Shown here piece by piece: positions 7,418-64,000 of a DNA stretch of 64,000 nucleotides. This DNA is from Eledone cirrhosa (lineage: Eukaryota), in assembly GCA_964016885.1 (NCBI GenBank), contig OZ024741.1, positions 300,638,001 to 300,702,000 of the forward strand. The letters are read 5' to 3'. Positions within the stretch are counted from its first letter, which is position 1. Each line of letters starts with the position of its first letter. Position numbers and translations under genes: made by a program. Below the pieces are notes generated by a model that was given only the letters and a program-made list of their open reading frames with translations, was not told where the DNA came from and searched no databases.

Positions 7418-9406
7418 ATAATAATAAAATTGAAGACTAAAATCCATATGGGTAATAAAAACATACGGGTAACATATACTTACCTATGCAAATAAGTAAA
7501 GGAATAAACAAAACATATACTTAGCTCCCACATCAAGACGTAAAATATCCACGTATAGATCGTGCTATCCGCTAGGGTATAACGCGTGGCTGTAATACAG
7601 GAAAGTTTTGTGCAATTTATGTTTACAAGCCGAAATTGCCTCAGATTTTTTGTTTAAGATGTGGTCTGTGGCGTAGAGTATTTCCAGGGCCTCAGCGGCC
7701 CAGAGGTCACATGGTATTTTATTTCCGTTATACGATCTAGCCCTAGCTAGGATCTCCCAGTGTAACTTATATTGGGTGTGGTTGTCTTTTAGACTCCAGA
7801 TATAAGCTGAAAGTGACGCCATATTCCTTCTTAGAGGGTAACGAAAAGAATGGGTATGCATATAAAGACGCTGCTTGAAACTATTGGCGGTTAACCCTAT
7901 GTAGCCCCTACGGGACGTGGGTGTTACAACCTTACATTTGTAGAAAATGTTACTAGAGAGGCATTTCCCGGATAGTGGGCAATCAGCCCGATTCCTACAA
8001 TTACAGTTAGTACTAACTACAGGGTTGCACGTGTTCCTACGGCTAGGTAGTTTAGCTAAATTTGAAGCTGTGATGTTATGTGCAAGGTTAGGAGTCGTAG
8101 AGTAAGAAATGTTAATAGTATTTCAATTAAAATGTTTACTATATTTATGTGTAGGGGGAAAATGCTTCGTAATAAGGGAAAGAAAGATCTTAGCTAATGG
8201 TGTGGCCACCTCCATATTATATGGTGGGTTAAACCAACAAATGCGACGAGATCTATTTCTTCTAGGTCTATTTTCGTACTCTGTATATGCTACCTTATCG
8301 ACAAATCCACTTCGAGCAAGAGCTTCATTGTAATAAGTGGAATGGTCGTTGAAAATGCGCTCGTTGGTGGAATGACGGGAAAGCCTCAACGAAACGTTTT
8401 TTACCAGGTTCTTGGTTATGCTGGCAGGATGGTTGGAATGTTTACTTATGTAATTAAGCGTATCATTCGGCTTTCTATACGGGTAATACAACCCATTCAA
8501 TAAATTGAGGGTAACGTCGAGGTAATTAACGACCGAGAGATTGGCCTCAACCTGTATAGAGAGGTTGAAGCCTTTAAAGAAGGCTGTGAGTTCTTTTCTG
8601 AACCTGTCGCAAGCACGAGGTCCTCACTTAGTCATGGTCAAAAGACCATCGTCACGGTACAAACCACCGCCCGCGTTGCGGAATTCGTCCTTGATAGAGA
8701 AAAGAAGGAAAAGGCAAATAAGATCAGTAACCTCCGCAGAGTCACTGGCGCCCATACTCACGTCGAATGGGGTACTATTGGATTTTTTAATCCAAATAGA
8801 GTCGTCGAAATTAATCACCGACTTTCGAGCGTTAAGGATGACATCAACTTCGAAATCCTTAACCACTGGGAGTGTTTTAGCGAAATTGATAGCTCTAAGG
8901 AGAAGTGGTAAAGTGATGGAGGAGTAGTAATCGTTGATGTCGAATTGGATAAAACGGCAATGTTCCTTGTTACATATGCCGTTCAACCAATCAATCACCG
9001 CTAAAGAATTGTTCCACAGTGCGAGAGGGGCCAAACTTCTAATTTCAGGTATAATTCTATCAAGAATCGTTTTACTAAGTCTACCTAAATCGGACTTCGT
9101 AGGGTTAATAAGCCGAATAGAGGGGTTGTTCGGAAAATTGGATTTGTGATCCTTCAGGGTAAAGTGGGGAGAGATAGGGTCCAGAGGTTCGGTCCGGTCC
9201 AGGATGTTGAGATCAGATGTGATTTTAAACCCAGCATCGATTGATTTCATTGATGACACAGCGATTAGTTTTACGGTAATCCTTAGTTACAGCATTATGT
9301 AGTAGTTGATGGTAAGTACTGCGCTCCACTTGATATAGGTTGCCAGTTTTGTCGGAATGGACGTCAGCGATTCTTTGCTTAAACTTTAATCTGTTATTTT
9401 AATAAA
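7413..9406 (-). mobile_element. Penelope-like element family A (Neptune-like), 5'-truncated, with inverted pLTR piece
   Basis: RT fragments 8624-9259 (GGGLYRDDGL) and 8123-8500, GIY-YIG region ~7565-8105, highly similar to the 15.4-17.3 kb copy. 9366-9406 is an inverted pLTR fragment. Flanked by (TA)n. Confidence 0.92.
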
Positions 9407-11188: not shown

Positions 11189-11253
11189 TATTTTGTCTGA
11201 TGAAAGCACACCATAATTTAACTTGGTGTCCTTGAAATATGTATAATGAAATA
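11189..11253 (+). ncRNA. Type I hammerhead ribozyme (relative of the family E pLTR)
   Basis: TATTTTGT-CTGATGA-stem II (AAG..ACACCA/TGGTGT..CTT)-GAAA-TATGTA-TA-ATGAAATA, then AATAAA and (TA)n. Confidence 0.75.
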
Positions 11254-14514: not shown

Positions 14515-17500
14515 TAAAATAACAGATTAAAGTTTAAGCAAATAATCGCTGCTTTCACCCTTAACGGGATCTTCTGAAACTAACGAAGTCAATCTGTAAA
14601 CGCAGAAGTGGATATTTCAAAAAACGTTGCAACCGGAGGAAGACAGGAAGACGATACTTTGGTTCGTGGAAACGTTCCCTGGCAAAGAATGGGAAAAAAC
14701 GAACATAATACGTCATTAATAGGAGCGGTGAAAAACAATTACACGCAAAGACAGGACCACGCTTTTGGTATAAAAGAGGTCGTAGACTAATGTTCTCTTA
14801 GGTGGTTCATAGAGACGTTCTCTGATCATGAACGAAAAAGCGAAGATAATACGTCATATGTGGAGCGTGGAGAACAATTGCACGCAAAGACAAAACCACG
14901 TAAATGGTATAGCAGAAGTCGTAGACTAAAATTTTAACTAGGAGACCGAATGAATCTCCGCTTCAGAGTTAAGAACAAAGTAAATAAATACAATACAGAA
15001 GTAATAGAAATTAAATAGATACATACACGCGTACAAATAGGTACATACACATGCATACGCTAAAACACTTACCATAGGTTTAGAAAACCACGCACATATA
15101 AATATGTGTGTGTATGTATGCGTGTATACAAATAAATAAATAATTAAATAAATACGTATATAACAAGCGCACACACATACCTACATGTAAATACGCAAAT
15201 GTTCGGAGACGTAAGTCAACCAAAAAATGCAGTACACATATACACACACTCTACATACGTACGTACCTGCATACTCACACAGACGCAAAACTCCCGTATA
15301 CACATAACCAAACCATATGTACCAGAATATATAAAAAGTATACGCCAATACAGTTACAATCAAATATACGTACGAGAAGGTATACGTACCTTCACAAAAC
15401 ATACAGGTAATATATACTTACCTATGCAAATAAGTAATGGTATACACAAAACATATACTTAGCTACCACATCAAGAAGTAAAATATCCACGTATATATCG
15501 TTCTGTCCGTTAAGGTATAACGTGGGGCTGTAATACAGGAAGGTTTTGTGCAATTTATGTTTACAAGCCGAAATTGCCTCAGATTTTGTGTTTAAGATGT
15601 GGTCGGTGGCGTAGAGTATTTCCAGGGCCTCAGCGGCCCAGAGGTCACATGGTATTTTATTTCCGTTATACGATCTAGCCCTAGCTAGGATCTCCCAGTG
15701 TAACTTATATTGGGTGTGGTTGTCTTTTAGACTCCAGATATAAGCTGAAAGTGCCGTCATATTCCTTCTTAGAGGGTAACGAAAAGAATGGGTATGCATG
15801 TAAAGACGCTGCTTGAATCTATTGGCAGTTAACCCTATGTAGGCCCTACGGGACGTGGGTGTGTCAACCTTAAATTTGTAGACAATGTTACTAGAGAGGC
15901 ATTTTCCGGATAGGGGGCAATCAACCCGATTCCTACAATTACAGTTAGTACTAACTACAGGGTTGCACGTGTTCCTACGGCTAGGTAATTTAGCTAAATT
16001 TGAAGCTGTGATGTTATGTGCAAGGTTAGGAGTCGTAGAGTAAGACATTTTAATAGTATTTCTATTAAAACTTTTAGTGTAGGGGGAAAATGCTTCGTAA
16101 TAAGGGAAAGAAAGATCTTAGCTAATGGTGTGACCACCTCCATATTATATGGTGGGTTATACCAACAAATGCGACGAGATCTATTTCTTCTAGGTCTATT
16201 TTCGTACTCTGTATATGCTACCTTATCGACAAATCCATTCCGAGCAAGAGCTTCATTGTAATAAGTGGAATGGTCGTTGAAAATATGCTCGTTAGTAGAT
16301 AGACGGGAAAGCCTCAATGAAATGTTTCTTACCAGGTTCTTGGTTATGCTGGCAGGATGGTTGGAATGCTTACTTATATAATTAAGCGTATCATTCGGCT
16401 TTCTATACGGGTAATACAACGCATTCAATAAATTGAGGGTAACGTCGAGGTAATTAACGACCGAGAGATTGGCCTCAACCTGTATAGAGAGGTTGAAGCC
16501 TTTAAAGAAGGCTGTGAGTTCTTTTCTGAAACTGTCGCAAGCACGACGTCCGCACTTAGTCATGGTCAAAAGACCATCATCACGGTACAAACCACCGCCC
16601 GCGTTGGGGAATTCGTCCTTGATAGAGAAAAGAAGGAAAAGGCCGATAAGATCAGTAACCTCCACAGAATCGCTGCCGCCCATACTCACGTCGAATGGGG
16701 TACTATTGGAATTTTTAATCCAAATAGAGTCGTCCAAATTAATCACCGACTTACGGGCATTGAGGATGACATCAACTTCGAAATCCTTAACCACTGTGAG
16801 TGTTTTAGCGAAATTGATAGCTCTAAGGAGAAGTGGTAAAGTGATGGAGGAGTAGTAATCGTTGATATCGAATTGGATAAAACGGCAATGTTCCTCGTTA
16901 CATATGCCGTTGAACCAATCAATCACCGCGAAAGAATTGTTCCACAGTGCAAGAGAGGCCAAACTTCTAATTTCAGGTATAATTCTATCAAGAATCGTTT
17001 TACTAAGTCTACCTAAATCGGACTTCGTAGGGTTAATAAGCCGAATAGAGGGGTTGTTCGGAAAATTGGATTTGTGATCCTTCAGGGTAAAGTGAGGAGA
17101 AATAGGGTCCAGCGGTTCGGTCCGGTCCAGGATGTTGAGATCAGACGTGATTTTAAACCCAGCATCGTTGATTTCATTGTTGACGCACCGATTAGGTGTA
17201 CGGTAATCCTTAGTTACAGCATTATGTAGTAGTTGATGGTAAGTACTACGCTCCACTTGATATAGGTTGCCAGTTTTGTCGTAATGGACGTGCACGGCAT
17301 TAGAATCCTTAATAGAACGAATTCTATTCTTCAGGTCCTGCTGGAAGTAATTGCTCCTATTCCGAAATTTGATACTCCGTATGAGTTCCAAGACATCATT
17401 TTCGAAGGGTAGCAATGCTGGGTTACACGGAGGATTATTATAGGTTTTAAACCCAAATGTATCCTGTTAGTTGTCTGCTTTTCGCGGATTATCGAAATAA

Positions 17501-18060
17501 AAGGCACGCCAAAGCAACATTTTAATGAACGCGTCTGTTTTCTGTATCAGGAGTTTTAGGTATGTTTTCTTGCTTGGTATGTTCTTTGTAGAAGTATTCA
17601 GATGTTGTTTCTGCATGATGAATATAAGTCAATAGAGTGCTCAACCGAGGGATCTAAATAGTAATAATAATAATAAATTTGAAGACCAAAATCCAAAGAG
17701 GGCTCGATAAGGTTAAATATATATCAATTATATAAGAACCGTAGAACAAATATTTATTAAAATAACAGATTAAAGTTTAAGCAAAGAATCGCTGCTTTCA
17801 CCCTTAACGGGATCTTCTGAAACTAACAAAGTCAATCTGTAAACGCAGAACTGGTTATTTCAAAAAAACGTTGCAACCGGAGGAAGACAGGAAGACGATA
17901 CTTTGGTTCGTGGAAACGTTCCCTGGCAAAGAACGGGAAAAAACGAAATTTGCTCTACGGTTCTTATATATTTGTTCTACGGTTCTTATATATTTGATAT
18001 ATATTTATCCTTATCGAGCGCTCTTTGGATTTTAGTCTTCAAATTTATTATTATTATTAC
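14510..18060 (-). mobile_element. Near full-length Penelope-like element family A (Neptune-like) with direct pLTRs and inverted 5' segment
   Basis: Direct repeats ~14510-14705 and ~17752-17947. 17948-18060 inverts ~17657-17755. Contains the RT+EN ORF and is flanked by (TA)n. Confidence 0.95.
15422..17616 (-). pseudogene. Penelope RT + Cys4 linker + GIY-YIG endonuclease, disrupted
   Basis: ATG at 17616 is in frame with the 473-aa ORF, with a TAA at 17467-17469. Motifs: DKTGNLY, IRLINP, FDINDYYSSI, LYRDDGL, WYNPPY. Frameshift at ~16050-16075, then CNCRNRVDCPLSGKC, NIVYK...YIG and RLYMH. Confidence 0.92.
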
Positions 18061-26209: not shown

Positions 26210-27160
26210 ATGCTATGCCTTCCTCAGACAAAATACAATATAAACAGTGTAAACTCTGTTCAAAAACGTATCTCTAGGATCTCGTCGAATAGAAAGATTT
26301 TCGACGAAAAGGCCCAATACTATAATGAAGCATTAGCTAGAGCAGGATATGCTGATAAGATTGTGTACATAGATAATGATAGACAAACTAAACAAAGTAA
26401 CAACTTTTTTAATTACGGCAACAACCTTAACAACTATAATAGAAAGCATTACAATAATTCAAAAGGCCAAAAAAGAATTAGAACTAGGAACATAATTTGG
26501 TTCCCCCCCCCCCCTTTCTCACTAAACATTAAAACCCACATCGCTAAACTATTTTTCAAAGCTCTTGATAATCGCTTCCCTAGAACACATAGGTATCACT
26601 CAATTTTCAATAGGCATACAATTAAATTAACCTACTCATCCACCAAAAATTTAGCACAAAATATTAATAGAATAAATAATAGGAACTTAAAACCTAGTGA
26701 TAATAGCATAAATAATATACAAGTTAACAAATGTAACTGTAGAGATAGATCTAAATGTCCGTTAAATAACAACTGCTTAGTTAAAAATATAGTATACAAT
26801 TGTAATGTTAATACTGACTATAATTCTTTTAACTACGTCGGTTCCACATCGACGGAATTTAAACTTCGCTATAATAACCACAAGAATTCTTTCACAGATC
26901 CAAGCAAAAAATCTTCAACGGCACTATCAGGCGTACTCTGGCAACTTAAGCTAGATAACGTTAGATATTCGACGGCTTGGAATATAGTCTCAAGAGGGAT
27001 TCCTTTTAATTCATCCTCTGAGACATGTGACCTCTGCGCAGAGGAGATATTCCTTATACTAAAATCTAAAAATTCCCTTAATCTACGGACAAATTTATTC
27101 AGTTGTTGCAAACATAGATTAAACTCAACGTTTAAATATAAATTTAAATTTAAAATGTAG
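26210..27160 (+). CDS. Penelope ORF 3' fragment (RT thumb, Cys4 linker, GIY-YIG), open frame
   Basis: Motifs YYNEALARAGY, RNIIWF.PP, CNCRDRSKCPLNNNC, NIVYNC..YVGST..FKLRYNNH, CDLC, CKH. The first ~13 codons come from the inverted pLTR. Confidence 0.85.
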   Translation: MLCLPQTKYNINSVNSVQKRISRISSNRKIFDEKAQYYNEALARAGYADKIVYIDNDRQTKQSNNFFNYGNNLNNYNRKHYNNSKGQKRIRTRNIIWFPPPPFSLNIKTHIAKLFFKALDNRFPRTHRYHSIFNRHTIKLTYSSTKNLAQNINRINNRNLKPSDNSINNIQVNKCNCRDRSKCPLNNNCLVKNIVYNCNVNTDYNSFNYVGSTSTEFKLRYNNHKNSFTDPSKKSSTALSGVLWQLKLDNVRYSTAWNIVSRGIPFNSSSETCDLCAEEIFLILKSKNSLNLRTNLFSCCKHRLNSTFKYKFKFKM

Positions 27161-39590: not shown

Positions 39591-39718
39591 TATATACATA
39601 TATATATATGTATGTATATATATATATATATACATATATATACACTAACATAAAGTCACGAGTATACACTTTTCATTTCTTACATATATGTATATATGTG
39701 TGTGTATATATATATATA

Positions 39719-40838
<1,120 letters not shown>

Positions 40839-42984: not shown

Positions 42985-46085
<3,101 letters not shown>

Positions 46086-46329
46086 TGACAAAGGTATAAA
46101 CGCCGGAAAGTGTAAAGGTGTAGACGTCAGGTCTTGTATAGTCACATGATTATATGTCCAAGGAGTTTAAATGGCACAATCATCGATCGTGCAGAGATAC
46201 TCAAGATTTATTCCGTTGGTGTGGAGGAGTATGACGAGGCAATTAAGTCCGGACACATCCAGTGTCTTAGCGAGATGACGGTGGCTGGATAATAGTATAG
46301 TTCACAGGTTTTTAATTTTTTAGTCCACC

Positions 46330-47877
46330 GTTTTAGGACAGCCAGGGTGCAGTGTAAAATGCCCTGGTATTATCGTGCCTGGGTATTATCCGGGGTCCAT
46401 CTGTAGAACGACTGCTGTGGTCTATGACCGCAATTGTTGACAGTTTCGGCTCGGCTGTTGAGGAGATCAGGGGGCGCTTGTACGATATAGTAAAGCTACA
46501 TGAGACAGAGCTGGCAGTTCTTCTTGAAGTTGTAGGGTGTTGTGAGGTTAACAATTTCCAAATAAGAGAAGCCGGTGCTAGCATCTTTTAAACTGGTGAT
46601 GTAATTGGTGAGGGATGTAGAGTGCCTTAGATTCCTATTTCTAAAAGAGTGAAGATGCGCTCGACATATAATTTTGAACTAGCCAGAAGTGGCCCCTATG
46701 TAGCATTTGACGCTATTGTGGCTAGTAACTGTACATTTATATATAACATTTCTAGTTAGGCACTGGCCCCGTAGTGGACAGTTATCGGGGTCACGACAAT
46801 TGCAGTGCTTACTATGGTCACCTCGGGACCGGCTGTTGTTAGTACCCACCGCGATACTATTATTAATGTTATTATTATTATCGGAACCACAGCTTCGATT
46901 GTTGTCGTTAGTATTAACTAAGTTAGGGACGCACAGGGTAGTACCATGTGTACGCACTATTGACGTCCGTATCGCAGCCCTCTACCGAACTACTCCAGCG
47001 GCGAGCATGCCGGTTAAGGTTACCACCAACATTACAGGATGCGGCTAGGGAATCGCTAAGTTTATCCAGTCTGCTGTATTCTCTAAGATTGTCTCTGCTA
47101 GGATGCTGTGTGTTAGTGAGCTTGCTGTAGTTACTTATCGCTATGAGATCAGCTAGATTAGGTGTATTTTGAGAAGGATATTTTAACCTTATTCTTATTG
47201 AGGATTTTTCTGTATTTATGGTTGGGTGGGAAGTTTTTATCTAAGGCGTCGAAGAAGATTCTAGGTAAGTCGGAGGCCACACTCCGAGAGTAAGGAGGCT
47301 GGAACCAGAGGACATTACGTTAGCGGTTACGTGTAGCTGTGGGTTTGCTATGGGCTGCGCTGGCTGGGTGACCCTTCTTCTCATTGCTAATATGTTGCTG
47401 TCTGGTGTGCATAGAGTGTGCGGCGTGCCTAGGTGCGCGAGATGTCTGAATGTGGTGGTACGTGTCCTCGCAAGCAGATTAGGGGGTGTAGGTAGTAAGC
47501 CATTACATTTGTTAAGCCTGTAAGCGGGGAATAAACGTAGTAGGCAGCTTGTGCTAATGTCAACCGGACTGTGACACTTTAGTTGCGGTGAACTAGCTGC
47601 CTCACTACCTCTGTAATTCGCGTGCGAGCCGTATCTATTGTTGCGATTACCTATTCTACTATTAGTTACATTAGTGTGGCTGCGGTGCGCTTGGTTATAG
47701 GTATGGCTTACTATAACACCAGTCCGAGATGGGGGGAGGCACGGTCAGCCTTAGGGAGGTAAGAAATCTGTACCTCCCTCTGAGACTCCGACGAGCCCAA
47801 CTTGGGCGTAACATGTGAAAGAGCTCCATATAAATAACATTTTAACGGTCTGTTTCTCTTTCTTCAATTTCTTCGAT

Positions 47878-52955: not shown

Positions 52956-53304
52956 TGTGTGTGTGTGTGTGTGTTGTGTGTGTGTGTTTGAATTTCTTTT
53001 TACTTAAAAAAAGGGGCTCACGAAGGCTTTTTTTAAATAATATATATATATATATATGTACTTATATTTATGTAAATATGAGTATATATACGTATATACG
53101 GATATATATCTATGTATACGTATATAGTGTATATATATACCTATATAAACGTATAAATGAAAATAGTATGTATATATATACATACATGCACACATATATA
53201 TATATATATATGTACGTATGGATTTACCGCGCATTTATAATGCTCGGTTTGTTTGTACACAAACATCTCGAATTAAGCCGTACAGTGTTTATACTGTGTT
53301 AATA

Positions 53305-54997
53305 CCTTAATAGAACGAAAAGTATTGTAATGCCGTGCACATCCATTCCGACAAAACTGGCAACCTATATCAAGTGGAGCGTAGTACTTACCATCAACTA
53401 CTACATAATGCTGTAACTAAGGATTACCGTACAACTAATCGGTGCGTCATCAAAGAAATCAACGATGCTGGGTTTAAAATCACCTGTGATCTCAACATCC
53501 TGGACCGGACCGAATCTCTGGACCCTATTTCTCCCCACTTTACCCTGAAGGATCACAAATCCAATTTTCCGAACAACCCTTCTATTCGGCTTATTAACCC
53601 TACAAAGTCCGATTTAGGTAGACTTAGTAAAAGGATTCTTGATAGAATCATACCTGAAATTAGAAGTTTGGCCCCTCTTGCACTGTGGAACAATTCTTTC
53701 GCGGTGATTGATTGGTTCAACGGCATATGCATCAAGGAACATTGCCGTTTTATCCAATTCGACATCAAATCAATAATTACTACTCCTCCATCACTTTACC
53801 ACTTCTCCTTAGAGCTATCAATTTCGCTAAAACACTCATAATGGTTAAGGATTTCGAAGTTGATGTCATCCTCAATGCCCGTAAGTCGGTGATTAATTAA
53901 AAAATCCAATAGTACCCCATTCGAGGTAAGTATGGGCGCCAGCGATTCAGCGGAGGTTACTGATCTTATCGGCCTTTTCCTTCTCTTCTCTATCAAGGAC
54001 GAATTCCCCAACGCGGGCGGTGGTTTGTACCGTGATGATGGTACGTATACTTTCTCGTACGTATATTTGATTGTATATCTTATGGCGTATATTTTATATA
54101 TTCTGGTCCATATGCTTTTGGTTATGTGTATAAGTGAGTTTTGCGTCTGTGTGAGTATGTGTGTTCGTACGTATGTACGGTGTGCGTATATGTGTACTTC
54201 GTGTTTTGGTTAACGTAGTCTCCGAACATTTGTGTATGTACATGTAGGTATGTGTGTGTGTTCGTTATATACGTATTTATTTATTTATATACGTTTATTT
54301 AATTATTTGTATACACACACACACACATATTTATATCTGCGTGTATTTGTATACCTATGGCGAGTGTTTGCATATGCTTGTGTATGTATGTATTTGGATG
54401 CTTGTATGTATTTATTTAATTTCTATAACCTCTGTATTTTATTTACTTTATTCTTAACTCTGAAGCGGACAATCATTCGGTTTCCTAGTTAGAATTTTAC
54501 TCTACGACTTCAGTTATACCATTTACGTGGATTTGTCTTTGCGTGCAATTGTTCTCCACGCCCCACATATGACGTATTATCTTCGTTTTTTCCTTACATT
54601 GCCATAGAACGTCTCTATGAACCACCTAAGAGAATATCAGTCTAGGACTTCTTTTATACCATAAACGTGGTTCTGTCTTTGCGTGTAATTGTTTTTCAAT
54701 GCTCCAATTAATGACGTATTATATTCGTTTTTTTCCGTTCTTTGCCAGGGAACGTTTCAACGAACCAAAGTATCGTCTTCCTGTCTTCCTCCGCTTGCAA
54801 CGTTTTTTGAAATATCCAGTTCTGCGTTTACAGATTGACTTTGTTAGTTTCAGAAGATCCTGTTAAGGGTGAAATCAGCGATTCTTTGCTTAAACTTTAA
54901 TCAGTTATTTTAATAAATATTTGCTCTACGGTTCTTATATATTTGATATATATTTATCCTTATCGAGCCCACTTTGGATTTTAGTCTTCTAACTTAC

Positions 54998-55005
<8 letters not shown>
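53305..55005 (+). mobile_element. Penelope family A, internally deleted (RT N-half joined to 3' UTR + pLTR)
   Basis: RT fragments 53335-54040 end at LYRDDG, followed directly by 3' UTR matching the reverse complement of 14510-15390. Confidence 0.9.
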
Positions 55006-55040
<35 letters not shown>

Positions 55041-55183: not shown

Positions 55184-55995
<812 letters not shown>

Positions 55996-55997
55996 TC

Positions 55998-56709
55998 AGG
56001 ACCTAACTTATCGAGTGCTTTGCTAACTCATCATTTGATATAAGTAGGTAAAATTTGCTTGCAAACCGCCAGAGTTTAGATTTTACTAAATTTCCACTTA
56101 TATTATTCTCCTAAATATCTAATTAATTTAATTAGACAATTCTGTTGATTGGTTAATTATTTGTTTTTGTTTTATAACATCTAGTCGAGAGCTTTTCGTG
56201 ATGATTAGCGGAAATTAAAATAATTCCTTTGTCTAACATTTTGCATGACCCGCCAAAAACCGGGTGTTATTTCCCTTGCTGGAATTAACACGTTACAGCT
56301 ATAGATACGATACGCTGCATCTAGCAGCAACATTTAGCCTATCACCTCTGTTCTGGGTAGAACTAAAAGACTGTTTAAATACTGAATCCTCCGTTCGATC
56401 ATGAATACCACGAGCTTGCCAGTCACGTAAGTCTGATATTTCATTTCGGATTCAAAGAAACACTTTAAACGTATAATCGTTTGATTTGTCCAGGTGTATT
56501 GTTCTCAACCTGTTAATTCTACCGTTACTTTGGTATATTATTGTGTTTAGATTTTGCCTACAACAATGTGTTTGATTTGTTCAGCTATTTAAACGTATGT
56601 TATTACTCTAAGGACCTAACTTATCGAGTGGTTTGCTAACTCATCATTTCATATAAATAGGCCGAATTTGCTGGCAGACCGCCAGAGATTCGATTTTACT
56701 AAATTTCCA
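55998..56709. repeat. 613-bp partial tandem in (TA)n (relative of the 36-kb unit)
   Basis: AGGACCTAACTTATCGAGTG at 55998 and 56611. Confidence 0.8.
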
Positions 56710-56845
56710 ATTATATATATATATATATATATATGAAATGGAATAGAATGAAATGAAATTTCATTTCTCACTCTTAGTACGGCACTTACTTAAATGTAAG
56801 TATGTATGTATACGTACATACATATATGTATACAGACGTACAGTA

Positions 56846-56922
<77 letters not shown>

Positions 56923-57370
56923 CAGGCACACATATATATATGTACGTATCAGTTTTAGCGAACATTTATTATAATGTTCGCTTTGTTCGTTTGTAAACAA
57001 ACGGACAGCATGATTTATGCCGTACGGTGTTAAGGCAACCACGTTACCTTTTTGTTCAACACTGACACAGGAACGATGTACTAGTTTCAAGCTTGTTAGC
57101 TATCGTCAGCACCGTATACTCTTCTGCCAGATGGTTGAACGATCGAAAGTATATACTTTCCTTATGAAAATTAACGGCTGAGCAGCCTAATTTGCATATC
57201 GAGTGAGTTCAGTCGGCCAGGCGCACCGAAAACGATAAAATGGAATAGAATGAAATGAAATTTCATTTCTCACTCTTAGTACGGAACTTACTTAAATGTA
57301 AGTATGTATGTATACGTACATACATATATGTATACAGACGTACTGCAGCATGTATATATATATATATATG

Positions 57371-60300
57371 AAATAAAGTTAAATAAAAGTCAAATGATTA
57401 AAATTTAGCTTCGTTTATTACTGCTATATATATTTCAGTGACAGCCATCTTTGGCTGTGACCTCTTCAGGCAGTTTGAATTAGTATGGTATAGACAAGTA
57501 CATATGTTGTTTAGGTGTATGATATTGCCAATACTCTGATATGCTCAGTTCCTTGTTGGGTTGTTAATTCACTGGGGAACTGGAGTCATATGAATTCAAA
57601 CAAACGAATTTTCGTGTCACAGGTCCCCTTCTCCTCTTATTGGTCAGTTATTAGAACATTCCTCATTCTAAGTGTTGTTATTGTTGGAGTTAACTTAAAA
57701 ATTGATAAAATGGTAGAAGGGACAAGGTGTTAAAGGAACAAAATAACAAAAAAAGTGTCAAACTTCCCATTGTTCAGTTCTGAGAGCATTCCTCAGTCAG
57801 AAGTCTATAGAATGCATTCTGTGGTGAGGCTCCCTGTAGTGTTTTTGCCTGCTATTGTTCAGTACATTTGACCTCCACCATTATTTTGGTACTGTTGTTG
57901 TTGTAGTGGTCAGCTTATATCTTGCTGCTGCTAACAATTTAGAAGTATCCAGTTTGTGTTTTTTCTTCATCCCTCCCGCCACCTTCGTAGTGGTGGTGGG
58001 GGGGGGGGTCATGTATATGAAGAAATATAAGGCAATAAATGAAGAAAACAGACAATAAATAAATAATATAATATAATAAAATAATTAATATAATTTGTGT
58101 AATTTGAAAATAAATAAATAAATAGAGAATAAAGAATAAAGAGTAAATGAGAGATTGGTGAAAAAGTAATGATAATGTATATGGAGAAGTGAGAAATAAT
58201 GTAGGATAAAGTGTGTGTGTGTGTGCTATAACCAATCTCAAGGTCAGAATATGTTGGATAGATTGGTATGATACAAGATGTTAAGATGAGATATTCAATG
58301 TGTTTGTGTTATAATCTATCTCAACTTAAAATAAATATAAGGTGATACAGTGAAGAGGGCAGAAAACAAATAACAAATAACAAATAATAAAGAGAAATCA
58401 AGATTTAAGATTGGAACTTGAAAGTCAGAAATCTGGTAAATTAAAAGTGTTTGTGTTATAGATGTTGGCCAAATTATTATGGCTGTGTCCGATTCTATCT
58501 CTAGGCTATCATGGTGTCTGCTCCGCCTGGGTTGTTCCCTGTGGCTTGAGGGAGTTCACAACCTAGGGTGTTGTTATTGCCCATATAGCTTGAGGGAGGT
58601 CTGGCCGAGAGGTGTTTTCATGTTCTGTAGAAGTCCCTATAGCTTGAGGGGAGTTCACATCTTCTTGTGTTGCTACTGTCCATATATTTTGAGAAAGGTC
58701 CCGGCTCTAAGGTGTCTGCATGTCCCGAAGAAGTCGGTTCTGAGGTTTATCAGGCCGCTTCCACCTCTTAGTATCTCGAGGGTCTCGTTCAGGCATAGTT
58801 TGCATATGCAAGATCCCCCTTTATCGGGTGGTACTTTCCTGATTATGTACCAGGCCAGTGAGTATGGGGTCCTGTCCAGCTTAAGCTTCCAGATCAGGTC
58901 GGAGAGAGCTGTGCTTTTCCTTTTGGCCTCCTTCTTGAATGAATGGCGATCGTTGTACCAGCGGTCCTTAAAGCTCGTTGATGTGGCTGCTATGTAGAGG
59001 TGTTCGGAGTTGGGGGTTTTAACCCTACAACCGTACACTATGTTCTTCTTGAGACATTCATTACCAAGGGGGCATGATTCGGGGTTTCTGCAGTTGCAGA
59101 GGGTGGTCGGCCTCTGCGTGCCTAGATTAGGGTTCTCATTATGTGTTACATGTTGGTCTTCCCCCATGCTCGGTGGGGGGTCCTTGGGTCTGTTTGTGTT
59201 TCTTGGGTGGGCTCTGGGTCCCCCCTTCCCTCCTTTCACACGGTTCTGCTGAGTGTTTGTATTGCCATCTTCTGGTTGTGTGTGGTTTTTAAACCTACTT
59301 CTGTTGATGCTAGCTATGTGCTGGGCCAAATTTCTCGTGGTGGAATACGAAAGCTTCACAGTGTGTTTGTTGAAGATCCTGTGGTATCTGTGGTCCCTCG
59401 GGAAGCATTTGTCAAGTGCTCCAAAGAATAATCGGGCCAAGCTTTTCTTTAGGGCCGCTAAGTAGGGTGGGCTGTACCACGTGATTTGTCGGTGTCTCCT
59501 CCTATATGTGTGGGTTGGGGGCTTCGTGATTTGTTGGAGATTTGTTGGGTTGCTGGTGGTTTCCGCACAGTTGCTTCCCTTTTGGGCTCTATACTTTTTG
59601 TTATCTTCGCGGCCCGGATTTGTGGGGTGGTTGTTGTTCGCCCCGGGAGATCCATCGTGGGGTGGTCGCCCGTTTCCCCCCCCCCCCCAAGTGTCCTGCG
59701 GTTGGGGTTGTCCGTCCTGGGGTAGTTAGCGTCACGCCTGAGACTGCTACTCATATTGTGCTCCATCTCGTGGTCAAGCGCACTAGTCCCCACCGGCCGT
59801 GTGGTGGTGTCTGGTACATGGTGCCTATTTGATTCTGCTCTGCCTGTATTGTTAGGGTTCGCCCTCCCCCCTCTGGCAACGCGGTTTTGGGTGTCTGTTG
59901 GGCTATCCACCTCCCGGCTTTTCGGACTATATGTTATATTTTGTCCATGTGCCGCCTTCTTTAGAGCTGCGTTGTAATATTCCGCGTGGTTGTTGAATAT
60001 TTCCTTACTTGCGGACAGGCTGGAGATCCTGTCCGAGACACTCTTCACCACTGCCTTGGTTATGGATCTAGGGTGGTTTGATTTGGCGTTAACATATACG
60101 AGTTTCTCGTTGGGCTTGTGGTAGGGGTAGTATTGCTCGGTGTTCAGGTTTAGGGTGGTGTCTAGGAAGTTAACTACCTTCCTATTTGGGTCTATTTCTA
60201 TGCTGAGCCCCTGGTTCTTAAAGAAATGGCGAATACGCCTCCTCATACCCTCCAACATATTGGTACTGTACTGTGAATAGAGCATCGTCACGATATAATC

Positions 60301-61978
60301 CGCCGCCCAGGCAGGGGATTTCATCTTTTATCTGCTTCAGCAGGTAGAGCCCAACCAGGTCCGTTACCTGCGCTGAGTCGCTGGAGCCCATCGTGATGTC
60401 AAAGTTATTTTGCCAATCACTCCTGGTCCAAAGGTCTCCATCGAAGCGGATTAAGGTCTTTCTTGCGGCGTGGAAGATGCTCACCTCCTCTCGGGTTAGG
60501 TCCGTATTGGACATCGCTAAAAATAGGGCCTTATTAAGTACTATGGGTGAGATTGAGGAGTAGTAGCTTGCGATGTCCAGTTGTATAAAGCTGGTCCTAC
60601 TTTTCTCATGCAGTATTTTGAACCATTCTATTACTTCTCTCGTGCATGACCATTGCTGTAATTTGGTTTTCTTCCGAAGCTTGGGCAAAATCCTATCCAG
60701 TATTCTTTTACTGACGATCCCTAGGTCAGATCTGGAGGGGGCTATTAGTCTGACAGGGAGGTCGGACTCAAAGTTTGACTTGTGGTCTTTAAGGGTAATC
60801 CGCGGCTCCCTTGGTTGTTATGGTGCCCTCCTGTCCTCTATGCCGATTCTGGATATAATCCTGTAAGCTGTGGCATTGATCTCATCCAGGGTTAATCCAG
60901 GTGTTTTTTTGTAGCACTTCCTCAGTTTCCTGAGGATTAGCTTATTGTACAGTTCAGTGTTCATGTTGTAGAGGTTGTTTGTTTTGTCAGCATGGACAAG
61001 TATTCCAGTTGTCCCTTTAAGTACTCTAATCCGGTTTCTCAGGTGTCTGAGGTACTCCTGACTTCTGGTTGGGTTTCCGGAGAATTTGAGGTTGGATATG
61101 ATGTTAATCATCTCGTTTTCAAACTCCTCCATTAGTCTGTTGTGGGGGTGGATTCCTCCTTGATCGAAAAAGGTACTCCATTTTTTCTGTGTTTGTAGTT
61201 TTCTGCGTTCCTCTTTCGAAGTGGAACGCCTTCCATCTCATCCTACGGATGAGGGAGTCCGTACTCTTGATGAGATCAATGGTGTATTCTCGTTTATCAG
61301 GTAGGGGGATGTCCTTCAGTGACGCTAAGGTTGCCAGTTTATCCATAGTGACTTAGGTCCGCTACTGTTTGAAGCGCTCAACACGTGTCGGAGCTAGATA
61401 GATTTTGAGTTTATGTTGGTTGTATACCAACACCTCAGTATGCACGCTGGAGCACTCGACGAAGTGCGCAGGTTGGTTTGGTTACTCCGGAGTAGTGTAA
61501 AATAAAGTTAAATAAAAGTCAAATGATTAAAATTTAGCTTCGTTTATTACTGCTATATATATTTCAGTGACAGCCATCTTTGGCTGTGACCTCTTCAGGC
61601 AGTTTGAATTAGTATGGTATAGACAAGTACATATGTTGTTTAGGTGTATGATATTGTCAATACTCTGATATGCCCAGTTCCGTGTTGGGTTGTTAATTCA
61701 CTGGGGAACTGGAGTCATATGAATTCAAACAAACGAATTTTCGTGTCACACGTCCCCTTCTCCTCTCATTGGTCAGTTATTAGAACATTCCTCATTCTAA
61801 GTGTTGTTATTGTTGGAGTTATCTTAAAATTGAACTAAGCTAAATTTTAATCATTTGACTTTTATTTACCTTTATTTTACACTACTCCGGAGTAACCAAA
61901 TCAACCTGCGCACTTCGTCGAGTGCTCCAGCCTGCATACTGAGGTGTTGGTATACAACCAACATAAACTCAAAATCTC
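57371..61978 (-). mobile_element. Near full-length Penelope-like family C (Neptune-like) with direct pLTRs and inverted 5' segment
   Basis: Direct repeats ~57371-57700 and ~61500-61830, each with an HHR. 61836-61978 inverts 61400-61540. Confidence 0.93.
58673..61346 (-). pseudogene. Penelope RT + Cys4 linker + GIY-YIG, frameshifted
   Basis: Pieces with RMRWKAF, ADKTNNLY, LDIASYYSSI, LYRDD, NFLDTTL, CNCRNPESCPLGNEC, NIVYGC..YIAAT and CKLC. Confidence 0.9.
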
Positions 61979-63336
61979 TGTATATATATATATATATACA
62001 TACAGGCACACATATATATATGTACGTATCAGTTTTAGCGAACATTTATTATAATGTTCGCTTTGTTCGTTTGTAAACAAACGGACAGCCTGATTTATGC
62101 CGTACGGTGTTAAGTCAACCAAGTCACATTTTTGTTCAACACTGACACAGGAACGATGTACTAGTTTCAAGCTTGTTAGCTATCATTCAGCACCGTATAC
62201 CCTTCTGCCAGATGGTTGAACGTTCGAAAGTATATACTTTCCTTATGAAAATTAACGGATGAACAGCCTAATTTGCATATCGAGGGAGTTCAGTCGGCCA
62301 GGCGCACCCAAAACGATAAAATGGAATAGAATGAAATGAAATTTCATTTCTCACTCTTAGTACGGCACTTTCTTAAATATAAGTATGTATGTATACGTAC
62401 ATACATATATGTATACAGACGTACAGTAGCATGTATATATACATATATATATATATACATACAGGCACACATATATATATGTACGTATCAGTTTTAGCGA
62501 ACATTTATTATAATGTTCGCTTTGTTCGTTTGTAAACCAACGGACAGCCTGATTTATGCCATACGGTGTTAAGGCAACCACGTCACCTTTTTGTTCAACA
62601 CTGACACAGGAACGATGTACTAGTTTCAAGCTTGTTAGCTATCGTCTGCACCGTATACCCTTCTTCCAGATGGTTGAACGTTCGAAAGTATATACTTTCC
62701 TTATGAAAATTAACGGCTGAGCAGCCTAATTTGCATATCGAGTGAGTTCAGTCAGCCAGGCGCACCGAAAACGATAAAATGGAATAGAATGAAATGAAAT
62801 TTCATTTCTCACTCTTAAGACGGCACTTACTTAAATGTAAGTATGTATGTATACGTACATACATATATGTATACAGACGTACAGTAGCATGTATATATAT
62901 ATATACATACAGGCACACATATATATATGTACGTATAAGTTTCAGCGAACATTTATTATAATGTTCACTTTGTTCGTTTGTAAACAAACGGACAGCATAA
63001 TTTATGCCGTACGGTGTTAAGGCAACCACGTCATCTTTTTGTTCAACAGTGACACAGGAACGATGTACTAGTTTCAAGCTTGTTAGCTATCGTCTGCACC
63101 GTATACCCTTCTGCCAGATGGTTGAACGTTCGAAAGTATATACTTTCCTTATGAAAATTAACGGCTGAGCAGCCTAATTTGCATATCGAGTGAGTTCAGT
63201 CGGCCAGGCGCACCGAAAACGATAAAATGGGATAGAATGAAATGAAATTTCACTTCTCACTCTTAGTACGGCGCTTACTTAAATGTAAGTATTTATGTAT
63301 ACGTACATACATATATGTATACAGACGTACAGTAGC

Positions 63337-63427
<91 letters not shown>

Positions 63428-63843
63428 CAGGCACACATACATATATGTACGTATCAGTTTTAGCGAACATTTATTATAATGTTCACTTTGTTCGTTTGTA
63501 AACAAACGGACAGCCTGATTTATGCCGTACGGTGTTAAGACAACCACGTAATCTTTTTGTTCAACACTGACACAGGAACGATGTACTAGTTTCAAGCTTG
63601 TTAGCTATCGTCAGCACCGTATACCCATCAGCCAGATGGTTGAACGTACGGTGCTCACGATAGCTAACAAGCTTGAAACTAGTACATCGTTCCTGTGTCA
63701 GTGTTGAACAAAAAGGTGACGTGGTTGCCTTAACACCGTACGGCATAAACAGGCTGTCCGTTTGTTTACAAACGAACAAAGCGAACATTATAATAAATGT
63801 TCGCTAAAACTGATACGTACATATATGTATGTGTGCCTATATG

Positions 63844-63941
<98 letters not shown>

Positions 63942-64000
63942 GCTACTGTACGTCTGTATACATATATGTATGTACATATACATACATACTTACATATATA

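Follow-up and report, generated by a model that had tools for sequence, protein, structure and literature searches.

A hammerhead retrozyme of Eledone cirrhosa with the insertion ends of Penelope-like elements and a likely Hydra-clade enzyme

A window of 64,000 nt from the genome of Eledone cirrhosa (contig OZ024741.1, positions 300,638,001 to 300,702,000; positions below are counted within it) carries an array of a tandem repeat, here termed family A, whose unit of 448-460 nt, longer where its TA tract is expanded, contains one predicted type I hammerhead ribozyme. Our analysis of this array and of its copies across the genome suggests that family A is an animal retrozyme of the kind without long terminal repeats (non-LTR), present in more than 10,000 copies at (TA)n sites and likely copied and inserted by the reverse transcriptase (RT) and endonuclease of a co-resident Penelope-like element (PLE) of the Hydra clade.

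Insertion ends and the mobilising enzyme

Exact copies of two 40-nt core variants number 660 and 10,122 (10,782 together) in the 3.0-Gb genome, against 0 matches to the reversed patterns, and the family A total is higher than this exact-core count. Insertion ends were taken as the ends of BLAST alignments and are accurate to within a few bases. Three samples were used: 31 stretches surrounding the top BLAST matches, ranked by similarity and two of them contiguous (sample 1), the first 40 of the further C1 loci, taken by position (sample 2), and 20 loci hand-picked for several units or an inversion (sample 3); samples 2 and 3 contain the hammerhead by selection. In samples 1 and 2, 112 of 149 3' ends fell in two fixed intervals ~60 nt apart that make up 7.2% of the unit, with 49/69 in the similarity-ranked and 63/80 in the position-ordered loci, against the 7.2% expected; 21 further ends lay in the unit's TA tract, interrupted there by later insertions, and 16 elsewhere. 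The two fixed sites lie beyond the cut site by ~230 and ~290 nt, TA directly follows 109 of the 112 ends, and the insertion flanks are (TA)n, where a target-site duplication cannot be read.

Head-to-head inversion was present in 45 of the 71 loci of samples 1 and 2. Of the two arms of such an insertion, one ends at the long site and the other at the short site in 27 of 28 classifiable cases, 17 more having at least one unclassifiable end; in sample 3, 34 of 37 ends were at the fixed sites and all 11 classifiable pairs (4 were unclassifiable) combined long and short, giving 38 of 39 over the three samples. The arms run back across one to many hammerhead sites and meet at scattered positions, the 5' phases at inversions being compatible with a uniform distribution (Kolmogorov-Smirnov p 0.22 and 0.27). 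Some arrays are long, with 17-38 units in the fetched stretches.

A second retrozyme family in the window, family B, has end sites homologous to those of family A, at 231 and 300 nt beyond the cut; its window copy shows the same long-end phase, and long and short ends were combined in 6/6 classifiable pairs (8 inversions in total, 2 unclassifiable). Its hammerhead matches the Rfam family HH9 with 29.8 bits (E 7.6e-5), below the gathering threshold of 52, and 2,100 first-look candidates were counted in the genome. Family B is very young: the insertion at C1:333737416-333751696 (loci L183 and L184) consists of 3.2 + 27.3 near-identical 470-nt units in inverted arms.

The PLEs of the same genome end in a comparable manner. 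Two families represented in the window, PLE1 and PLE2, each have two TA-flanked end sites downstream of the hammerhead, ~100 and ~90 nt apart, and all 10 readable opposite-strand pairs combined long and short, the pairs within the window being assigned by adjacency. A one-sided tail and an inverted arm have been described as PLE features, and Hydra elements insert in (TA)n (Craig et al., PMC8557442). In vitro, the PLE tail corresponds to the stretch that separates two internal sites of RT initiation, a trait described as unique to PLEs, and both DNA strands are nicked and extended by the enzyme (Frangieh et al., PMC11167929). Since the one-sided tail and the long/short pairing are as in PLEs, the retrozyme carries the signature of a PLE enzyme; its ends match the PLE end pattern, and thus PLEs likely copy and insert it. 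The enzyme would nick both strands and start reverse transcription internally, one strand per fixed site. A PLE-type enzyme is hence the likely one by the junctions, and Hydra is the best guess for its clade, judged by the target, by abundance (26,700 and 18,993 first-look candidates in two PLE protein searches of the genome) and by young open PLE2 frames of 713 aa. The assignment stops short of a particular PLE family, because the retrozyme has no detectable homology to the pseudo-LTR of PLE1 or PLE2 and a shorter tail.

Several observations weigh against this assignment. Comparison of the retrozyme with the pseudo-LTRs of PLE1 and PLE2, the two of several PLE families that were studied over their full length, revealed no homology; no retrozyme-type hammerhead was attached to a PLE ORF (open reading frame) in the 1.05 Mb scanned; the tails measure 60-70 nt, versus 90-100 nt in the PLEs of this genome; and Naiad PLEs, which likewise form tails and inversions, also favour (TA)n (PMC8557442). 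The missing homology and the Naiad preference would also suit an enzyme from outside the Hydra clade, either of another PLE clade (Naiad, Neptune) or of a long interspersed nuclear element (LINE) in this genome. Such an origin appears unlikely in view of the abundant Hydra-type candidates with their young open frames and of the Hydra motifs in all PLE-like proteins examined, a set gathered with no genome search for other clades; the paired internal ends, described as unique to PLEs (PMC11167929), also weigh against it. A junction at 53.3 kb speaks for Hydra as well: here a retrozyme arm, whose end lies near the short site, faces a 5'-truncated PLE2 whose end is the long one, and 38 nt separate the two alignments. 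It is a candidate head-to-head insertion of retrozyme and PLE2, and a deletion fusing two insertions would look alike; a search for such chimeras found 1 candidate place among 48 loci with both elements (175 loci with matches).

Spread at the DNA level as a satellite or minisatellite, by unequal crossover or extrachromosomal circles and with a fossil hammerhead, is very improbable. It would accommodate the arrays of 17-38 units, and neighbouring units sometimes have variants in common (62612 and 63060), which indicates that local expansion occurs. The fixed 3' phases, TA targets, inversions, long and short pairing and dispersal argue against it, as do the intact core in 150 of 192 full units and the two-sided base changes in a hairpin outside the ribozyme. 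The end phases largely refute the satellite explanation for dispersal, and it holds only for post-insertion growth of some arrays.

Layout of the window and structure of the unit

An earlier reading of the window made from its letters alone (the sequence-only reading) had described 56735-64000 as one array. Unit mapping along the window, from which the array parts in Table 1 are taken (TRF sees the 448-nt period at 61984-63367 only), leaves only ~2.7 kb of repeat; 4.6 of the 7.3 kb (57371-61978) are PLE1. Units on both sides of PLE1 have one subfamily haplotype in common, so PLE1 was inserted into an existing array. The statement that there is no real ORF is right for the unit, which is non-coding with only low-complexity frames and a GC content below 50%, and wrong for the interval, where broken frames of 139, 199, 289 and 350 aa carry RT and GIY-YIG motifs. 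Nor do all copies lie on the minus strand: the array flips head-to-head at ~63650, with a plus-strand copy at 63648-63690 whose core is CTCACGA. The array obeys the long and short rule: its minus arm ends at ~56735 at the fixed long site (...TTCCATTT) and its inverted arm at ~63995 at the fixed short site (...CATACTTAC), each followed by (TA)n, and a PLE2 end lies beyond the window. Three features overlooked earlier point to the enzyme, namely the PLE, the inversion and the targeting of (TA)n. The second array and the fragment at ~53.2 kb are present as had been noted, and are older relatives (72-86% identical). The fragment was also considered as a PLE2 pseudo-LTR and ruled out, intact PLE2 copies having an unrelated pseudo-LTR.

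Table 1. Retrozyme and PLE features of the window
Feature	Positions	Strand	Remarks
Older family A array, 1.9 + 0.3 units	39718..40831	-	interrupted in TA tract; long end at 39718
Old family A fragment	53107..53289	-	ends near short site; head-to-head with 5'-truncated PLE2
PLE2 (second Hydra family)	53320..55033	+	5'-truncated, internally deleted; long end ~55033
Family B, 470-nt unit, 1.5 copies	55184..55873	+	hammerhead core at 55543
Family A, 3' part of minus arm, 1.3 units	56733..57369	-	unit mapping
PLE1, Hydra-clade PLE	57371..61978	-	inside unit's (TA)n tract; short end ~57371, long end on inverted arm ~61978
PLE1 3' pseudo-LTR	57371..57705	-	98% identical to 61500-61833; minimal hammerhead core 57469, predicted cut after 57425
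PLE1 broken ORF, several frames	58673..61237	-	RWK, DKT, YRDD, CxCx5C, GIY-YIG-like VYG..YI, CxxC, CxH
PLE1 5' pseudo-LTR	61500..61833	-	minimal hammerhead core 61598, predicted cut after 61554
PLE1 inverted 5'-truncated arm, 145 nt	61833..61977	+	97% to 61400-61544
Family A, 5' part of minus arm, 3.5 units	61979..63650	-	four cores within
Family A inverted arm, 0.6 unit	63647..63998	+	head-to-head, 4-nt overlap

A (TA)n tract is part of every unit, and these tracts were later targeted by PLEs and other elements, as by PLE1. Non-retrozyme sequence following the unit TA tract is the same at window ~39975-40040 and in locus L019 after 5163, and is probably the end of another TA-targeting element. 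An element of ~720 nt at 55996-56716, flanked by two TA tracts, has direct terminal repeats of ~106 nt (89%) and a relative in locus L152.

PLE1 shows the Hydra-clade motifs RWK, DKT, a CxCx5C linker, a C-terminal GIY-YIG, CxxC and CxH; PLE2 has RWR and is without the first linker Cys. From these motifs together with the hammerheads in its 335-nt pseudo-LTRs, the inverted 5' arm and the (TA)n target, PLE1 is assigned to the Hydra clade; a Pfam search with the PLE proteins yielded no significant family. Further PLE2 copies occupy 7568-9238 (-) and 15506-17628 (-), and the hammerhead-like motif of this family is unusual in its core, CAGAAGA, its cut site being predicted as CUU. A second PLE1 copy at 44520-46090 is rearranged and ~90% identical; it has a hammerhead at 44722 and contains part of its endonuclease region in inverted orientation. 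PLE-like protein fragments at 26243-27130 (+) and 46391-46801 (-), 37-39% identical to PLE2, possibly represent further PLE families.

The unit of ~450 nt with its hammerhead on the minus strand was borne out; the motif reads ACGGTG-CTGACGA-TAGCTAACAAGCTT-GAAA-CTA-GTA-CATCGT. All seven core states listed in the sequence-only reading are exact: cores are intact at 57073-57115, 63578-63620 and 40181-40223 and altered at 62153-62196 (one-base insertion, CTGAATGA), at 62612-62654 and 63060-63102 (CAGACGA) and at 40608 (CTGATAA, GAAG). It had also placed the predicted cut of the 57073 core correctly, after GUA and between 57079 and 57078. Stem I has 6 bp and continues into a rod, and a U-U forms the base of the 4-bp stem II. 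Helix III consists of one pair plus the palindromic CUAG, because of which the hammerhead is predicted to act as a dimer; pairing of the ACUAGU palindrome in trans, as dimer helix III, is predicted at -6.8 kcal/mol. The two intact cores at the array are not neighbours, and the locus may therefore release no monomers. The CAGA variant (62612, 63060) matches the hammerhead-like motif that occurs throughout the PLE2 family (41 copies, 31 loci), so it may not be dead.

Rfam at gathering thresholds gave no match anywhere in the window; at E<=10 over 55300-57700 there was no hammerhead match for the 57073 copy, only that of family B and TA-driven microRNA noise. Circular folds of three whole units were far better than those of shuffled sequences (z -7.8, -7.9 and -11.5, 40 shuffles each), with part of these scores owed to TA-rich fold-backs. 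The three extra hairpins proposed for the unit are present. Across 32 diverse copies, both sides had changed in 9 of 64 named pairs, 5 of these among the 10 pairs of the AGCGAACATT/AATGTTCGCT hairpin, counts that are inflated by the relatedness of the copies. An architecture of LTR, PBS (primer-binding site) and PPT (polypurine tract) is absent from the family A unit, PBS and PPT being judged by eye.

Other hammerhead-like motifs in the window were located at 11197 (+), 12858 (+), 39222 (-) and 39345 (+), the last two facing outward in an inverted repeat beside TA tracts. A third tandem hammerhead repeat, of ~307 nt (core CTGATGA, GAAA-CGC-GTA), abuts the 5' end of a PLE1 at L045:30-600 (-).

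Circle or uncut multimer as template

The octamer ATGCAAAT, which we take to be the octamer of small nuclear RNA (snRNA) promoters, is present in 31 of 32 aligned family A copies, and TATGCAAATTAG, ~120-130 nt upstream of the cut, is the longest exact match common to families A and B outside TA-rich sequence. The arrays would be transcribed, possibly from an internal promoter of snRNA type; newt satellite 2 has such a promoter (PMC2220036). Neighbouring hammerheads are predicted to pair via the palindrome and cut, and the monomer to be ligated to a circle of ~450 nt, as shown for other retrozymes. Arms would then be made by repeated passes over one monomer, likely this circle. Arms across the cut site could not come from a linear monomer that had been cut and was primed 230-290 nt in, and the template should therefore be a circle or an uncut multimer, or else be reached by template jumps.

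The same PLE-driven insertion could have used an uncut multimeric transcript of the parent array, with circles, if made, as a side product, and this is a serious possibility, if short of an even chance. In young insertions the units are near-identical, as are the two arms; a young and homogeneous parent array would also yield such units. In 20 young insertions (~36,000 cells), 17 variants were insertion-wide (8 occurred on both arms, and 4 of these 8 were private), 5 were shared by subsets and 42 were singletons; in the 3.2 + 27.3-unit family B insertion, a private allele was found in 30/30 units on both arms. These data favour a one-unit bottleneck, which insertion-wide private alleles require at some point, and they speak against the uncut multimer. 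Arms compared in register were not clearly more alike than those off register (3.5% vs 3.8%; Wilcoxon p 0.38, 8 insertions, low power), and cross-arm doubletons were 3 in register and 9 off, with 1.4 +/- 1.1 expected, a test of low power in which several are alignment noise. A nearest-neighbour test of units (110/148 nearest within their own locus) was set aside as biased by star-like ages.

Other results tell against the circle. The variant 144T lies in register, in the third unit of each arm of the large family B insertion, as a multimer predicts, and some arrays seem to have expanded locally. For the single PLE assayed in vitro, that of anole, cleavage by the hammerhead was not required and uncut RNA dominated as substrate (PMC11167929); only 1 of 9 Xenopus retrozyme dimers was cleaved in vitro (bioRxiv 10.64898/2026.07.22.740005); and the minimum-energy fold of the isolated 66-nt family A stretch is not the hammerhead (z +1.0). 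On balance, the variants modestly favour a circular monomer over an uncut multimer.

The sequence-only reading had proposed multimeric cDNA from rolling-circle reverse transcription. Its retro-mobile, dispersed repeat is supported, the genome-wide copy count speaking against a one-locus satellite; the circle is plausible. Random array phases were to indicate a circle and a fixed phase a satellite. The 5' ends are indeed scattered, whereas the 3' ends lie at two fixed internal sites, and the test has no power to discriminate, because internal initiation by PLEs predicts fixed 3' and scattered 5' ends for either template.

The full scenario, in which a Hydra PLE enzyme would nick both strands of a TA tract, prime twice inside a circular ribozyme RNA, once per fixed site, and roll up to ~27 turns, the circle bringing its own snRNA-type promoter and DNA target, is put forward tentatively, with the chances somewhat against it. 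If true, the junctions would prove, from the genome, that PLEs drive the rolling-circle retrotransposition of animal retrozymes that have no pseudo-LTR homology, and the junction at 53.3 kb would mark one single insertion, with a retrozyme as one arm and a PLE as the other.

Comparison with known retrozymes and Penelope-like elements

The retrozyme class and the PLE hypothesis are already known: PLEs have been called a strong candidate for moving animal retrozymes (PMC7229834), and the mechanism of mobilisation is said to remain to be worked out (bioRxiv 10.64898/2026.07.22.740005). The junction evidence appears to be new. No published description of retrozyme junction anatomy was found in a literature coverage that leaves out most subscription journals and paper supplements, and the supplements of PMC7229834, PMC8557442 and the preprint could already list the family or its junctions. 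Two young retrozyme families are available in this genome, together with candidate enzymes that are intact and with predictions, to the base, of where the RT starts; the junctions turn the question of enzyme and template into a specific assay, and the published in vitro PLE assay fits both.

Family A resembles the animal non-LTR retrozymes of coral, mussel and axolotl/newt satellite 2 in several respects: a short non-coding unit is repeated in tandem and bears a single type I hammerhead, the GC content is below 50%, no LTR, PBS or PPT is visible, the predicted circle is highly self-paired, and PLEs are co-resident (PMC7229834). Its helix III of one pair and a palindromic tetraloop is similar to that of axolotl HHR_Amex1 and its U-U at helix II to HHR_Amex2, and axolotl retrozymes with those weak features cleave well only as dimers (PMC7229834). 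The unit is at or above the top of the 150-450 bp range reported there. Its own (TA)n tract, (TA)n insertion, two fixed ends and inversions found no counterpart in the parts of PMC7229834 available to us; expression, cleavage and circles have been shown for the retrozymes of that study, and are predictions for family A. Of four runs of contigs compared with the stretch, three covered it in numerous short variant pieces and one gave nothing.

With Hydra-clade PLEs (PMC8557442) and the anole Poseidon PAc (PMC11167929), the retrozyme shares the (TA)n or AT-rich target, 5' truncation, the inverted 5' arm, the one-ended tail and internal initiation downstream of the hammerhead. Unlike these PLEs, it has no ORF, a tail of 60-70 nt (30-40 nt in PMC8557442 and PMC11167929) and tandem multimers of up to 27 units per arm. 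Non-autonomous Chlamys elements such as the putative MRC1 are alike as PLE passengers with multicopy head-to-tail insertions, but their 3' end resembles autonomous families and their clade is mostly without canonical hammerheads (PMC8557442).

Xenopus retrozymes are alike in their PLE partnership and in occurring as monomer, dimer and multimer copies (bioRxiv 10.64898/2026.07.22.740005). There, the link to PLEs consists of co-occurrence and of homology between pseudo-LTRs: of 57 families, 24 matched Repbase transposable elements, nearly all of them PLEs. In contrast, family A has no homology to the pseudo-LTRs of PLE1 and PLE2 and is linked to PLEs by its insertion junctions.

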